The translations under genes were made by a program, and so were the position numbers. This document shows positions 6,261 through 54,950 of a stretch of 64,000 nt of DNA, piece by piece (position 1 is the first letter of the stretch; each line of letters starts with the position of its first letter). The stretch is from Rhodanobacteraceae bacterium. Lineage in GTDB: Bacteria; Pseudomonadota; Gammaproteobacteria; Xanthomonadales; SZUA-5. Location: the NCBI GenBank assembly GCA_024234055.1, contig JACKOW010000001.1, positions 146,710 to 210,709 of the forward strand, given 5' to 3'. Under the pieces are notes generated by a model that saw only the letters and a program-made list of their open reading frames with translations, was not told the origin of the DNA and did not search any database.

Positions 6261-6562
6261 GGGGTTCTGAGGCAAGTAAGGTGAAAAGTGAAACGTAAAA
6301 CGTCAATTGAGGCAGCGGCGGGGTTGGGGTTCTGAGGCGGTGCCGCGCCGGGTTTTCTGCAGCGCTGAGGCAAGCAAGGTGAAACGTGAAACGTAAAACG
6401 TCAATTCGGTGGGCGGCGAGCTTGATGGTCCGGGTCCTTCTGGGTCGGTCGGCAGCGCGCGTGCGCATTCGTCACCGCGAGCTCGGAAACAGCCTCAGCC
6501 CAAATTTACGTTTCACGTTTTACGTTTTACTGCTCAGAACGTTTTACGTTTTACCGCTTGCC
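6261..6562. repeat. composite tandem-heptamer inverted repeat, GTAAAAC family (two left arms, two right arms)
   Basis: Left arms GGTGAAA(A/C)GTGAAACGTAAAACGTCAATT at 6280-6308 and 6378-6406, each preceded by CTGAGGCAAG. Complementary arms at 6502-6530 and 6538-6555. Confidence 0.9.
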
Positions 6563-6583
6563 GACCGCAGGGAGGCAAGCTGA

Positions 6584-7798
6584 ATGCCCGCCTTCCGCTT
6601 CAAGGCCGTCGCGCCCAACGGCGAGGTGCTGCAGGGCCAGATGGAGGCCGCCAGCACCGATGAGGTGGTGGCCAAGCTGCACGAGCAGGGCAATCTGCCG
6701 CTGGAGGCGATTCCGGCCGATCAGGCGCAGGGTGCCGGGCTGGGAGCCTTGTTCCGTTCCACCGGCGTGTCGCAAACCGATGTGGCCAATTTCACCCAGC
6801 AGCTGGCTACGCTGGTTGGAGCCGGCTTGCCGCTGGACCGTTCACTGCTGGTGCTCGGAGATCTGGCCGAATCCCCGCGCCTGAAGCGGCTGGTCGATCG
6901 GGTTCGCGATGAAGTGCGCGGCGGTGTCTCGTTGTCGGAGGCGCTGGAGCGTCAGCACGGCGTGTTTTCCCGGCTCTACGTCAACATGGTTCGCGCCGGC
7001 GAAATGGGAGGCACGCTCGATCACACGCTGACCCGACTGTCGCAATACCTGGAGCGCAACCAGGAGCTGAAGTCGAGCGTGGTCTCGGCCATGATCTATC
7101 CATGCATCCTGTTGCTGCTCGCCGGCGGCGCGATGATCTTCCTGCTGGTCTTCGTTATTCCCAACTTCATGCCGCTGTTCGAACAGCTGGGCGGCGAGTT
7201 GCCGATCCTGACCCAGATTGTGCTGGCCTTCGCCAATGCCATCCGCTATGGCTGGTGGGTATTCCTGATCATCGCCATCGCCGTGGTCATGTTCTTCCAG
7301 CGCCAGTTCCGCGACCCGGTCACACGGCTGGTGTGGGATACGCGATTGCTCAATCTGAAATGGATCGGCGATCTGCTGATCAAGATCGACACCGCGCGGT
7401 TTGCGCGCACCGCCGGCACGCTGCTCAAGAACGGCGTACCGTTGCTGTCGGCGATGTCGATCGCCCGCAATGTGCTGGGGAACTCGGCGCTGGGCGAACA
7501 GGTCGATACTGCCAACAAGGATGTGAAGACCGGCGGTGGCCTCGCCCATGCGCTGGCCGCCGGCAAGCGCTTCCCGCGGATGGCCTTGCAGATGATTGCC
7601 GTCGGTGAGGAAACCGGTCAGCTCGACGACATGTTGCTGCGCGCTGCCGATACCTATGACCGAGAGGTCAGAACGACCATCGACCGGCTGATGGCGGCCT
7701 TCGTGCCGGTGTTGACCATCCTGCTGGCAGGTTTCATCGCCGTCATCGTGATTTCCATGGTGACGGCCATCTTGAGTTTGAACGATCTGGTGGCTTGA
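6584..7798 (+). CDS. gspF: type II secretion inner-membrane platform protein GspF
   Basis: 404 aa with the duplicated GspF/PilC domain and three TM segments. RBS GGGAGG lies upstream of the ATG. Confidence 0.93.
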   Translation: MPAFRFKAVAPNGEVLQGQMEAASTDEVVAKLHEQGNLPLEAIPADQAQGAGLGALFRSTGVSQTDVANFTQQLATLVGAGLPLDRSLLVLGDLAESPRLKRLVDRVRDEVRGGVSLSEALERQHGVFSRLYVNMVRAGEMGGTLDHTLTRLSQYLERNQELKSSVVSAMIYPCILLLLAGGAMIFLLVFVIPNFMPLFEQLGGELPILTQIVLAFANAIRYGWWVFLIIAIAVVMFFQRQFRDPVTRLVWDTRLLNLKWIGDLLIKIDTARFARTAGTLLKNGVPLLSAMSIARNVLGNSALGEQVDTANKDVKTGGGLAHALAAGKRFPRMALQMIAVGEETGQLDDMLLRAADTYDREVRTTIDRLMAAFVPVLTILLAGFIAVIVISMVTAILSLNDLVA

Positions 7799-7810
7799 AG
7801 AGGACACGCA

Positions 7811-8338
7811 ATGAACGAAGCAAAGGGTTTCAGTCTGATGGCGCTGCGGCAGCGACTGCTGGCCGGGCTGGTGTTGGCCCCTCGCGAATCCGCGAAGGGA
7901 AACCATGGCCTTGTCTCCGGACGTCGCCGCGTCGGCGTTCATCAGCGCGGCTTCAGCCTGATCGAGATGTTGCTGGTGCTCGGCATCATTGCCTTCATTG
8001 CGACCATGCTGGCGACCAACATCTTCCGAAACAAGGAGCGGGCCAACGTTCAGGCGGCCAAGGCTGGCGTTCGCAAGGTGGCCACCGCCGTGGATCAGTT
8101 CTACCTCGACTCAGGTTCGGCGCCATCCAAGCTGGAAGAACTGGTCACCCGGCCCGGCAATGCCAGCAACTGGGGTGGTCCTTATCTGAATGAGTCGCAG
8201 CTCAAGGATCCCTGGGGCACGCCCTATGTGATCAAGGTGCCGGGTGAGGGCGGCCAACCCTATGCCGTGATCTCGCTGGGCTCCGACAAGGCGCCGGGCG
8301 GGGCCGATACGGCGGCGGATATTGACAATAATCAGTGA
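7811..8338 (+). CDS. gspG: major pseudopilin GspG
   Basis: Prepilin motif QRG|FSLIEMLLVLGIIA and a GspG core (DPWGTPY..ISLGSDKAPGG). The leader is at least 26 aa even from in-frame GTG/TTG near 7871. Confidence 0.9.
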   Translation: MNEAKGFSLMALRQRLLAGLVLAPRESAKGNHGLVSGRRRVGVHQRGFSLIEMLLVLGIIAFIATMLATNIFRNKERANVQAAKAGVRKVATAVDQFYLDSGSAPSKLEELVTRPGNASNWGGPYLNESQLKDPWGTPYVIKVPGEGGQPYAVISLGSDKAPGGADTAADIDNNQ

Positions 8339-8370
8339 TGAGATTGTGAGCTCGCGGCGGGCATACCTGC

Positions 8371-8508
8371 GGGACTCGGGACTCGGGACTCGGGACTCGG
8401 TGTTCTTGCCAGACTCGCCGCTTGTTCCCATTCCTCAGTCTCATTTTTCGCAGATGGGATCGAAGTTGCCGCTTGCCCGAGTCCCGAGTCCCGAATCCCG
8501 AGTCCCGG
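8371..8508. repeat. tandem-heptamer inverted repeat, GGGACTC family
   Basis: GGGACTC x4 at 8371-8400 and CCCGAGT-type x4 at 8476-8508, with a ~75-nt loop. Confidence 0.9.
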
Positions 8509-53813: not shown

Positions 53814-53883
53814 GGTGTGGCTCCTGGAACGCTTGAACTTTGATGCGCTACGGCTATTTGCCGCTCGCTGAATTCTTTTTTTG

Positions 53884-53952
53884 GTCAAACGTAAAACGTC
53901 AAACGTCAACTGACAGCCGCTCTCATTGACGTTTTACTTTTTACATTTCACC
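53884..53952. repeat. tandem-heptamer inverted repeat, GTAAAAC family (atpG-atpD spacer)
   Basis: GTCAAAC GTAAAAC GTCAAAC GTCAAC pairs with ATTGAC GTTTTAC TTTTTAC ATTTCACC. Confidence 0.9.
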
Positions 53953-53956
53953 GCTC

Positions 53957-54820
53957 TTAAACTGCTGCCGCGCCGCCGACGATTTCGCTGATCTCCTGCG
54001 TGATCGCGGCCTGACGAGCCTTGTTGTAGATCAGCGTGAGATTGTCGATGGCCTTGGTGGCGTTGTCGCTGGCCGACTTCATGGCCACCATGCGGGCGGC
54101 GTGTTCGGAGGCCAAATTTTCCAGTACGGCCTGATACACCAGGCTTTCGATGTAGCGCGACAGCACGTGATCCATGATCTCGGGCGCGCTGGGCTCGTAC
54201 AGATAATCCCACTGATGCTTGCTGTCCAGATCGTCGGTGGGCAGCAGCGGCAGCAGCTGGTCGACCGTGATCTTCTGGGTCATGGTGTTGACGAAATCAT
54301 TGTAGGCCACGAACAGACGATCGACTCGGCCGTCCATGTAGCTGTCCAGCATCACCTTGATGGCGCCGATCAGCTGATCCACCCGCGGTTTCTCCCCGAG
54401 GTGGGTGACCGAGCCGACCATGTCGACCTTGAGGCGCTTGAAGAAGGCCGTGGCCTTGGCGCCGATGCAGACCACTTCGATCTGCGCGCCCTTGGCCTGC
54501 CACTCGCGGATCTCGCCGAGCAGCTTGCGGAACAGATTGGCGTTGAGGCCGCCGCACAGGCCGCGATCGGTGGATACGATGACGTAGCCGACATGCGACA
54601 CCTCGTCACGCTCGACGAGGAAGGGGTGCTGGTACTCGGTGTTGGCCTTGGCGACGTGGCCAATGACCTGGCGCATCAGCTGCGCGTACGGACGCGAAGC
54701 CTTCATCAGCTCCTGCGCACGACGAATCTTGCTCGCCGACACCATTTCCAGAGCACGCGTCACCTTGCGGGTGTTCTGCACGCTCTTGATCTTGGTTCGA
54801 ATTTCTCTTGCGCCTGCCAT
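53957..54820 (-). CDS. atpG: F1 ATP synthase gamma subunit
   Basis: [32 protein letters not shown]-terminus, 287 aa. Confidence 0.95.
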
Positions 54821-54840
54821 AGGGTGCTCGCTTCGCTCGC

Positions 54841-54950
54841 GGTGAAAAGTGAAAGGTGAAACGTGAAAGGGGCTTCCTAGTGGGTGGGAACTGAGGGCTT
54901 TTAGTTGACGTTTAACGTTTCACGTTTAACTCTACTTGCCTCAACTCCGA
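54841..54950. repeat. tandem-heptamer inverted repeat, GTGAAAC variant (atpA-atpG spacer)
   Basis: GGTGAAAAGTGAAAGGTGAAACGTGAAAGG pairs with GTTGACGTTTAACGTTTCACGTTTAAC. The flank CTACTTGCCTCA matches the flank of the 6261-6562 element. Confidence 0.85.

Follow-up and report, generated by a model that had tools for sequence, protein, structure and literature searches.

The stretch of DNA analysed here (the window) comprises 64,000 nucleotides, with a GC content of 63.7%, from a Rhodanobacteraceae/Lysobacterales MAG, and contains the T2SS (gsp) genes and the atp operon. About 15 sites within it, and others in related genomes, carry elements of a common design, in which an array of tandem units of 7-8 nt is followed by a loop and by an array of the reverse-complementary unit. 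The window contains 17 tandem arrays whose period is 7-8 and whose copy number is 2.8 or more; 100 shuffles that preserved its dinucleotides averaged 0.22 such arrays and never exceeded 2. It also has five strict complementary array pairs, and the shuffles have none. Both the architecture, in several unit families, and the individual sites had been proposed in an initial annotation of the window, and every listed site was recovered at or within a few bases of its reported position. In the clade, period-7 arrays reach 14.2 per 100 kb; unrelated loci totalling 1.2 Mb have 0.82 per 100 kb, and periods 4-6 are not enriched in this comparison. Most arrays form convergent complementary pairs; in RNA folding, five elements reach z-scores of -5 to -10 relative to shuffled sequence, and the one at 54.8 kb is decayed.

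The T2SS genes carry four of the elements. The gspE-gspF spacer holds a compound GTNAAAC element (6262..6560, arrays 6281-6554) with two 5′ arms (6281-6308 and 6379-6406) inside a 98-bp duplication and two 3′ arms (6503-6530 and 6541-6554); strain L001 lacks the duplication, and the scaffold of strain L004 has a gap at this element, illustrating that the elements break assemblies. A GGGACTC pair in the gspG-gspH spacer (8365..8512; fold z -8.4) has arms at 8370-8400 (x4.4) and 8476-8507 (x4.6) separated by a 75-nt loop. The nearest in-frame gspH start codons, ATG 8454 and TTG 8466, lie inside this loop and more exist upstream; because gspH starts in the loop or farther upstream, the 3′ arm is probably translated as the gspH leader. 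On the plus strand, a GGAAAAG pair (9016..9102; arms 9018-9050 and 9073-9099; z -5.4) lies entirely within the gspI reading frame. The sole in-frame gspI start, ATG 9011, overlaps the gspH stop, and a 40-codon leader precedes G/FTLIE, the leader having 40 residues because the repeat is translated. Finally, a GTNAAAC pair at the gspI-gspJ junction (9529..9614; arms 9529-9555 and 9587-9614; z -9.9) overlaps possible gspJ starts at TTG 9517 or TTG 9589; in its L007 ortholog (12910-12995) the arms are conserved and the loop is unrelated. The repeat is tolerated in frame within a prepilin leader that is cleaved off, that of GspI and probably also those of GspH and GspJ; the counterparts of these element-bearing leaders are short in distant relatives. 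Gene callers are misled by the elements, with gspH, gspI and gspJ starts differing among assemblies. No unit-number change was found in the T2SS elements across six strains.

Three spacers of the atp operon carry GTNAAAC pairs. The pair in the atpD-atpC spacer (52263..52345; z -9.4) has 28-nt arms (52264-52290 and 52318-52345) that are 96% complementary, the pair in the atpG-atpD spacer (53883..53952; arms 53884-53910 and 53926-53952; z -6.7) begins 5 nt past the atpG stop, and the pair in the atpA-atpG spacer (54841..54931; arms 54842-54869 and 54904-54930; z -1.7) is decayed. A half or degenerate octamer array of GAGGGCAC (x4.1; 51657..51689, minus strand) lies downstream of the canonical atp terminator (about 51735-51762).

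The remaining elements are more heterogeneous. Downstream of relA/spoT, a GAGGGCGC octamer pair (44578..44690) consists of an x5.8 array at 44578-44623 and a degenerate complementary arm at 44660-44690, and is abutted by a TGTGGGAGCG-type REP. The paired hairpins initially described at 44.6 kb and 51.65 kb exist as arrays, but as asymmetric or half elements. A GAACGCAGA-type inverted repeat in a convergent spacer (27097..27182) has 22-nt arms (27097-27118 and 27161-27182) that are 95% complementary, and at 49820..50125 two copies of a 116-bp module made of a REP and a repeat arm are followed by a GAACGCAGA-type hairpin (50018-50120). The elements described as tandem 7-8 nt units at 27.1 kb and 49.9-50.1 kb are likewise present, but they are based on a weakly tandem, GAACGCAGA-like 9-mer and tied to classical REP modules. 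Single arrays comprise ACCCACA (x11.4; 27627..27706, plus strand), 5 nt past the stop of a minus-strand VIT-domain gene; GGGGCAG (x3.7; 31088..31113, plus strand), unpaired here and forming a convergent pair in L089 (20169-20257); a degenerate GGGGCAG-type array (x4.4; 33679..33709, plus strand); and a perfect CGGGACT array of the GGGACTC family (x7.7; 33907..33960, minus strand; TCCCGAG on the listed strand), 11 nt past the stop of an lpdA-like gene and adjoined by a REP-type palindrome.

Elements in the window occupy spacers 3′ of stop codons, within operons or between convergent genes. In a small sample mapped with GC3-based gene calls and Pfam, they lie 5-40 nt past stops, and none falls in the roughly four divergent spacers of the window. 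An intrinsic terminator is a GC-rich stem with a U-tract behind it where a transcription unit ends; the elements described here are found between genes of the atp and T2SS operons, and a consensus terminator scan flagged none of them. The canonical stem and T-tract after atpC escaped that scan too and can be seen in the sequence to be a different element.

The sequence of the units is itself constrained. All 25 differences among GTNAAAC units are confined to positions 3 and 7, whereas the remaining five positions show no variation in 180 sites. The free position of a unit is complementary to that of its mirror unit in only 52% of cases, versus 41% by chance. Since five of seven positions are invariant and two are free to vary out of step with the opposite arm, the heptad sequence itself is constrained, not only the structure, and base pairing is not preserved at the two variable positions. 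This pattern does not support the purely structure-driven mechanism first suggested for these repeats. GGGAYTC units show the same arrangement of fixed and variable positions, and the inner GTNAAAC unit is GTCAAY in 9 of 11 arms. Adjacent units resemble each other more than expected by chance (0.51 versus 0.33).

Arm size and polarity are equally regular. Of 111 GTNAAAC arms, 58 have 3.7 units (the mode), 39 have 2.7 and 14 are longer; arms usually hold 3-4 units, about 26-28 nt, and paired arms hold 2.9-4.7 copies in matching numbers. Arms so tightly clustered at 3-4 units are not free-running microsatellites, contrary to the initial description of the stems. Phase-variable microsatellites (contingency loci), long homogeneous arrays whose unit number changes at a high rate and so turns a gene on or off, are further set apart by the housekeeping neighbours of these elements (atp, T2SS) and by unit changes that are single and seen in two elements. 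The purine-rich version forms the 5′ arm in 34 of 36 pairs (counted by unit family, in 12 of 14), and GTNAAAC partners are convergent in 23 cases and divergent in none, with arm spacings from 3 to more than 120 nt. A flank, GGCAAG(Y)A(R)(R), is shared by non-homologous copies. The possibility that the families are fragments of a MITE finds no support, as the 111 GTNAAAC arms display neither target-site duplications nor conserved outer termini, and loops have no sequence in common between copies.

At least eight unit families coexist and recur across related genomes, AT-rich families with four-unit arms among them. GTNAAAC, GGAAAAG, GGGACTC, GGGGCAG and GAGGGCRC are found in related genomes at different orthologous spacers, so that unit sequence is drawn from the same few families instead of being swapped arbitrarily, as had been supposed. 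GTNAAAC hairpins that retain the inner GTCAAY end occur at many unrelated sites and on metagenome contigs of 38-70% GC. The comparison of orthologous spacers that the initial annotation had recommended revealed both unit-number variation within species and different families at the same atp and T2SS spacers. In the atp operon, GTNAAAC is present at three spacers in the window, GTGATTC at three in Dokdonella fugitiva, a cultured species in which three spacers with one family offer testable sites, and GGAAAAG at two and GGTGTTG at one in L089; the operon carries GGGACTC in L088 and GGAAAAG in L092, and plain REP-like palindromes fill the same slots in Rudaea. Some large hairpin, tandem-type or plain, is present in the atpA-atpG spacer of every relative examined. 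Over about 12% divergence, both arms have been rewritten in concert around a conserved loop core, AGCGGCT.

Within species, two elements have gained or lost single units: strain L093 lacks exactly one 8-nt unit (44616-44623) of the GAGGGCGC array, and L096 lacks one 9-nt unit of the 49.8-50.1 kb element, whose 116-bp module is present once in L096, twice in the window and three times in L093. Strains 96-99.9% identical over about 40 kb yielded no clean case of a filled versus an empty site. The sole within-species family swap is in L093, where a CGGGACC/GGGGACC x4 pair replaces the decayed GTNAAAC pair of the atpA-atpG spacer; because the last atpA codons are also synonymously changed, this swap is better explained as homologous import of a diverged allele.

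We tentatively favour, with a probability of roughly 40%, the reading that these elements are REP-like dispersed palindromes with heptad arms, read by a sequence-specific factor and reshaped in place by slippage. The five-of-seven constraint points to a factor that reads or writes heptads. A trans-acting factor specific for the sequence of each family would recognise its members and copy them into further permissive sites, by analogy with REPs and RAYT-type enzymes, and such copying would lead to genome-specific bursts, for example a single family per genome at three atp spacers. Once inserted, arms may change through whole-unit replication slippage and through selection or transfer acting between the two arms, before they decay. 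Elements would persist only where the transcript tolerates a 26-30 bp stem, be it past a stop codon, within an operon spacer or in the reading frame of a cleaved prepilin leader peptide, and a putative role in mRNA processing, stability or translational coupling would be secondary. Several observations weigh against this reading. The window ORFs scanned contain no transposase or RAYT domain, in agreement with the initial annotation, nor was a mobilising gene found in the window; target-site duplications, conserved outer termini and clean filled-versus-empty sites are missing from the comparisons above, and the one family swap within a species is better attributed to allele import; typical MITEs or REPINs share loop sequence between copies, whereas the elements described here do not; several cognate factors would have to exist for the eight or more families; and concerted in-place evolution alone might produce family-like convergence.

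In an alternative that we consider somewhat unlikely, elements arise purely locally, with no dispersal, and function in RNA. A spacer hairpin would grow in place by 7-nt slippage, intrastrand template switching (quasipalindrome correction) would reproduce the duplication in the opposite arm, and selection would retain a stem of about 28 bp as a processing site, decay barrier or translational-coupling modulator, the families being mutational or selective attractors. The concerted change of arms around a conserved loop, the gain or loss of single units within species, the likeness of adjacent units and the matching unit counts of paired arms are all consistent with this scenario, as are the hairpin found in the atpA-atpG spacer of each relative examined, the location of elements in transcribed spacers, distinct from the canonical atp terminator, and the reported transcription of Xanthomonas arrays (PMC4692102). 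Selection on structure, however, predicts the opposite of five positions that never vary, even by compensated change, and of free positions that are about half mismatched. Local origin must also contend with the recurrence of the same families and inner GTCAAY end at unrelated sites and on contigs of widely different base composition, with a stem stability that shows neither a consistent sense-strand bias nor a preference for G-U over A-C, and with elements that have decayed (54.8 kb).

The fixed and free unit positions, the latter not complementary, invite the improbable reading that heptads are binding sites for sequence-specific proteins that read in steps of 7 nt or 7 bp, candidates being ribbon-helix-helix proteins if the target is double-stranded DNA and cold-shock-domain proteins if it is single-stranded, and that the hairpin is a by-product of a preferred head-to-head placement of two arrays. 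Ribbon-helix-helix precedents are the omega repressor, with its WATCACW heptads, and MetJ, with its 8-bp metboxes. A fixed number of units per arm, strictly convergent orientation and units of 7 or 8 nt fit this proposal, and the Dokdonella fugitiva unit GAATCAC includes ATCAC, the core of omega heptads. Nevertheless, the range of arm spacings sits poorly with cooperative binding, a genome with eight or more families would require as many proteins, sites just past stops and inside operons are not operator positions, and no candidate gene is linked.

More speculative still, with only a slim chance of being correct, is the idea that the arrays are written and not merely copied, by a family-specific, template-directed repeat-adding activity that extends both 3′ ends of a break, for example after cleavage of a pre-existing palindrome. 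Rejoining would leave purine-rich repeats running toward the junction on both strands, a bacterial counterpart of head-to-head telomere fusion. If true, this model would explain the convergent purine-first polarity, the arbitrary loops (as filler), the single arms (one end extended), the fixed and free unit positions (templated and untemplated), the turnover of families in the same slots and the presence of one family across distant taxa.

G-quadruplexes (G4), the published explanation for the GGGAATC arrays of Xanthomonas (Rehm et al. 2015, PMC4692102), would link the four-unit preference to the four G-tracts needed per quadruplex, and GGGAATC has been shown to form G4 in vitro. The GGGACTC, GGGGCAG and GAGGGCGC arrays, with at least three G per unit and about four units, suit this explanation, but GTNAAAC has no G-run and GGAAAAG only GG, and both show the same four-unit arms, convergent pairing and gene-end placement. 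Because G-poor families share the architecture, G4 formation is ruled out as the class-wide cause and is very improbable as an account of the elements; the only published explanation is thereby removed for the class. Chance, assembly artefact or ordinary microsatellites, for which a single gapped metagenome scaffold at the 6.3 kb element might speak, are refuted by the shuffles, by elements identical across at least six independent assemblies and by the enrichment of periods 7-8 only.

The architecture itself is not new, although the initial annotation could not assign it to a described class: Xanthomonas genomes carry 70-75 convergent GGGAATC heptamer array pairs each, with four units preferred (Rehm et al. 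2015, PMC4692102), and an excess of heptanucleotide long SSRs in X. campestris, of which these arrays form part, is credited to Mrazek et al. 2007 where PMC4679880 cites that work. The elements are of the same class as these paired arrays, to which the GGGACTC family, one base away from GGGAATC, belongs, and Dokdonella fugitiva carries GGGAATC itself. As in the GGGAATC (GGGANTN) arrays of X. campestris and X. axonopodis, which belong to the same order, units have five conserved and two variable positions, four units are preferred, and convergent pairs can form stem-loops; placement is intergenic (in Xanthomonas, usually no more than 50 nt from a stop codon) and rare between divergent genes, and position is conserved between species while length varies. 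Only the GGGACTC family has a GGGANTN unit with G4 potential; since GTNAAAC and GGAAAAG lack G-tracts, the class found here is broader than its published definition. Where the Xanthomonas work dealt with one G-rich unit, here there are at least eight families, AT-rich non-G4 units, octamers and 9-mers, families that replace each other at orthologous spacers and some elements translated in frame. What is new is the coexistence of recurrent families, their sequence constraint, purine-first polarity and replacement at atp and T2SS spacers, together with within-species unit turnover, concerted arm change, the in-frame gspI element and the spread of GTNAAAC across contigs of 38-70% GC.

As high-copy, dispersed short palindromes that lie densely in transcribed spacers, with several families, genome-specific expansions and no target duplications, the elements also resemble REP, BIME and REPIN sequences. 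They cluster with other repeats, the 116-bp module (49.8-50.0 kb) joins a classical REP to a repeat-unit arm, and in Rudaea plain REP-like palindromes take the same atp slots. They are nonetheless distinct, as initially recognised, from the classical REPs of the same window: a REP or REPIN is a single imperfect palindrome with a GTAG-type head recognised by RAYT, an IS200/IS605-like Y1 enzyme whose gene the repeats usually flank, whereas these elements have tandem-array arms, no GTAG-type head, unconserved loops of very variable length and no RAYT in the window ORFs scanned. Rickettsia palindromic elements (RPEs) are single palindromes of about 100-150 bp found in many proteins, and Ogata and co-workers are said to have described them in 2000 as lying in frame within protein genes. 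They are unrelated in sequence to the elements reported here; in both, a palindromic repeat is tolerated within a reading frame since the protein can do without the segment it encodes, which in the present case is the prepilin leader. Cyanobacterial STRR heptamers and the TAACTGA repeats of Beggiatoaceae and cyanobacteria (PMC4679880) are likewise family-specific heptanucleotide arrays of 2-6 copies, intergenic near gene ends and patchy across phyla. They are, however, almost always single direct arrays, just upstream of start codons, with 169 direct sets and one indirect repeat in the BOGUAY genome (MacGregor 2015, PMC4679880), whereas in the elements described here the inverted pair is the rule.

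The repeat arrays listed in the initial annotation were all found in the window. There are 17 arrays with a period of 7-8 and no fewer than 2.8 copies, whereas 100 dinucleotide-preserving shuffles average 0.22 such arrays and never hold more than 2. Strict complementary pairs no more than 250 nt apart number five in the window and zero in the shuffles. Using 1.2 Mb of unrelated loci as a control, period-7 arrays occur at 14.2 per 100 kb over 169 kb of clade DNA versus 0.82 in the control (0.55 in its high-GC subset), and period-8 arrays at 1.8 versus 0.08 per 100 kb. The enrichment is period-specific: for periods 4-6, the clade density is in line with that of the control. 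The predicted RNA folds of the paired elements are far more stable than those of shuffled sequences, with z-scores of -8.4, -5.4 and -9.9 for the elements at 8.4, 9.0 and 9.5 kb, and of -9.4 and -6.7 for those at 52.3 and 53.9 kb; the element at 54.8 kb is decayed (z = -1.7). The elements annotated at 27.1 and 50.0 kb are present, but they are built on a 9-mer unit and are weakly tandem; the segment at 49.8-50.0 kb is a 116-bp module in which a classical REP is joined to a repeat-unit arm. Classical REP-type palindromes, of types beginning TGTGGGAGCGGGC, CTGTAGGAGCG and GTCATTGCGAGGAGCG, lie at 35802-36025, 27469-27548, 33795-33890 and 44690-44715; among them is a 99-bp module occurring in 2.3 copies, and several adjoin heptad arrays. 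No Rfam family matches the window.

The window is matched at 96-99% identity by a Lysobacterales/Rhodanobacteraceae MAG (GCA_041395365.1) and at 99.7-99.9% by several activated-sludge metagenome contigs, Dokdonella and Rudaea being its nearest named relatives. A type II secretion operon (gspE to gspD) occupies 4.4-16 kb of the window, and the atp operon lies on the minus strand at 51.8-58.9 kb. A domain search of the ORFs scanned in the window returned no transposase or RAYT domain, in agreement with the initial annotation. Between near-identical strains, 41 substitutions cluster within 1 kb of gspD (15000-16000), surrounded by 0-8 variable sites per 500 bp, which suggests import by recombination.

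The arms of the GTNAAAC, GGAAAAG and GGGACTC families keep to a narrow size of 26-28 nt, made up of three complete units and one inner unit, and paired arms detected without a sequence model span 2.9-4.7 units, with counts that match between partners. The commonest length among 111 distinct GTNAAAC arms is 3.7 units (58 arms), followed by 2.7 units (39 arms), and only 14 arms are longer. Loop length varies from 3 to over 120 nt, with no sequence shared between loops; neither target-site duplications in the element flanks nor conserved termini or loop homology were found, except for a GGCAAG flank in a subset of copies. When the GTNAAAC arms of the window are selected by periodicity instead of by motif, all 25 departures from GTAAAAC in their 36 full units fall at unit positions 3 and 7, while positions 1, 2, 4, 5 and 6 are invariant across all 180 sites; 9 of 11 arms have GTCAAY as their innermost unit. 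GGAAAAN units also vary at positions 3 and 7, which places both families in a GKNAAAN group. At the free position, mirrored units agree in 52% of cases (41% on shuffling) and adjacent units within one arm in 51% (33%). With some positions fixed and the free position not kept complementary, the constraint falls on the heptad sequence and pairing at the free position is not maintained. The structure-driven mechanism put forward in the initial annotation, or any purely structural explanation, therefore fits poorly with five invariant and two uncompensated free positions. Two signs of selection at the RNA level were also tested: sense and antisense folding energies differ in either direction, and free-position mismatches carry no excess of G-U over A-C.

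In all DNA analyzed, the 5′ arm is the purine-rich version in 34 of 36 complementary pairs, or in 12 of 14 unit families. As a universal rule this polarity fails, in an Omnitrophota element and in a near-neutral unit; the GTGATTC unit of Dokdonella fugitiva has more G than C and is not purine-rich. Elements start 5-40 nt past a stop codon, within operons or between convergent genes, and none was found in the approximately four divergent spacers of our gene map of the window. They are separate from the canonical terminator, a GC stem with a T-tract, that follows atpC.

The 5′ ends of three minor pseudopilin genes (gspH, gspI and gspJ; 8322-9650) are each overlapped by an element. The sole in-frame start of gspI is the ATG at 9011, overlapping the gspH stop codon (ATGA), so the entire GGAAAAG element is translated as a 40-residue leader preceding G↓FTLIE. 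For gspH the closest in-frame starts lie inside the element loop, and for gspJ the candidate starts lie upstream of the element or inside it. Leaders before G↓FTL(I/L)E are unusually long (36-40 residues in GspH, 40 in GspI and 18-42 in GspJ, compared with an ordinary 2-15 in more distant relatives) because repeat elements sit between the upstream stop codon and the mature N-terminus. In type II secretion the leader is cut off by the prepilin peptidase, making it a permissive site for insertion. Start calls for these genes differ between assemblies, giving 186 or 140 aa for GspH and 233 or 257 aa for GspJ.

Orthologous spacers in relatives are occupied by varying families. The window has GTNAAAC elements at atpA-G, atpG-D and atpD-C; among the compared sequences, L091 (88% nucleotide identity) has GTNAAAC or GTGAAAG at the two slots covered, L092 (83%) GGAAAAG at atpA-G, L088 GGGACTC at atpA-G, and L089 GGTGTTG at atpA-G followed by GGAAAAG at the next two slots. 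D. fugitiva (L246, 9904-12536) bears GTGATTC/GAATCAC hairpins at three slots and a GTCAAAC-type element at atpH-A, and L087, L090 and Rudaea bear plain palindromes. Which family fills a slot varies from genome to genome, and neighbouring slots within each genome tend to hold one family. With L089 also carrying a GGGGCAG pair, L090 a GAGGGCAC octamer pair and D. fugitiva a GGGAATC array, a small set of families is thus common to several genera. A further relative, L007 (GspF 91% identical, genes with approximately 80% DNA identity), retains the gspI-gspJ element with conserved arms and an unrelated loop, and has GTGAAAC arrays between gspE and gspF. The GC-rich inverted segments in its gspG-H and gspH-I spacers were considered as retained hairpins with a swapped unit, a reading dropped because their folds are no better than those of shuffles (z = +0.35 and -0.66).

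The AAACGTNAAACGTCAAY string has at least 124 metagenome-contig matches; among the matches listed, 23 have a partner arm, convergent in all 23 and divergent in none, at 19 loci on contigs of 38-70% GC, several of which carry further heptad pairs. Twenty-five viral-contig matches to the GTNAAAC pattern all lack a partner arm and look like chance. A Syntrophomonadaceae MAG (Firmicute; L038, 4840-5005) holds a single ACGTTTC/ACGTCTT array of approximately 170-200 bp with the core of the GTGAAAC family and no partner arm. In the Omnitrophota MAG (L078, 5550-5620), a heptad-armed hairpin (GTTTACC GTGTACC ... GGTAAAC GGTCAAC) of polarity opposite to the Rhodanobacteraceae elements lies directly upstream of a pseudopilin gene.

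Within the species, the arrays change by whole units and modules. One strain (L093) lacks exactly one 8-nt unit (44616-44623), another (L096) lacks one 9-nt unit at approximately 50.04 kb, the 116-bp module is present in 1, 2 or 3 copies, and a 98-bp stretch duplicating the 5′ arm of the 6.3 kb element is a further difference between strains. Repeat-bearing spacers of L093 are 91-96% identical to the window, versus 99-100% for genes. In L091, the atpG-atpD slot keeps the loop core AGCGGCT while its 3′ arm consists entirely of CTTTCAC units, not GTTTGAC/GTTTTAC, and its 5′ arm of GTGAAAG, a concerted change of both arms at a single site. At atpA-atpG, L093 has a CGGGACC/GGGGACC pair (four units) where the window has GTNAAAC, with an identical AtpG protein. 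Cassette mobility was rejected here: the last five atpA codons differ too, in each case synonymously, and homologous import of a diverged allele explains the replacement more simply. No fully formed heptad element was seen at an otherwise empty site among the close strains compared. A convergent spacer of L093 (window 61966; L093 about 2780-2822) does hold a 42-nt insertion, GGGCGAAGAGTCACCAGCCCGGCCGACGTCGATACGCCCCAG, which has GGGGCG/CGCCCC ends and is flanked by CCAG on each side; this small palindromic insertion is not of the heptad type and is polymorphic within the species. In the L004 metagenome scaffold a run of N (about 7572-7670, window 6300-6446) falls exactly at the 6.3 kb compound element, indicating that such repeats can break or gap assemblies.

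In the reading that agrees best with the data, held tentatively with a probability of roughly 0.4, we interpret the elements as REP-like dispersed palindromes whose heptad arms are read by a sequence-specific factor. This factor would read the arms and, we infer, copy elements to permissive sites; slippage of units and transfer between arms would then remodel the arms, and the elements would finally decay. The ORFs, flanks and strains compared yielded neither a mobilising gene nor a target duplication nor a fresh insertion. The main rival, in which spacer hairpins grow in place and are selected for as RNA stems, accounts for the concerted change of arms and for the occupation of the same slots in every relative; it leaves both the heptad sequence constraint and the recurrence of the same families unexplained and appears rather unlikely. 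The D. fugitiva unit contains ATCAC, the core motif in the heptads to which the omega repressor of inc18 plasmids binds; that the heptads are protein-binding sites is a third and decidedly improbable explanation. A repeat-writing activity at breaks is a further, very improbable origin for the arrays.

The REP-like reading concerns an element class that is real and striking, and that has been partly described before. Xanthomonas genomes contain 183-186 GGGAATC-type arrays each, with 70-75 convergent pairs capable of forming stem-loops; these arrays lie within 50 bp of gene ends, are under-represented between divergent genes, keep their position between species while varying in length, and are transcribed (Rehm et al. 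2015, PMC4692102). The architecture, which the initial annotation could not assign to a described class, had therefore been described, and the GGGACTC family of the window belongs there. As related by citing papers, a heptanucleotide excess in X. campestris had been attributed tentatively to polymerase slippage (Mrazek et al. 2007). No paper with unit strings other than the GGGAATC type was found in the searchable literature. Rehm et al. proposed G-quadruplexes and found no function; GTNAAAC and GGAAAAG arms share the four-unit size, the convergent pairing and the placement but contain no G-tracts, so G-quadruplexes cannot be the general explanation. Beyond the Xanthomonas arrays, what is new here is the multi-family picture, the case against G-quadruplexes, the sequence constraint on five of seven positions, the polarity, the turnover of slots, the in-frame insertion into leaders and the finding of GTNAAAC hairpins on contigs that cover a wide GC range.
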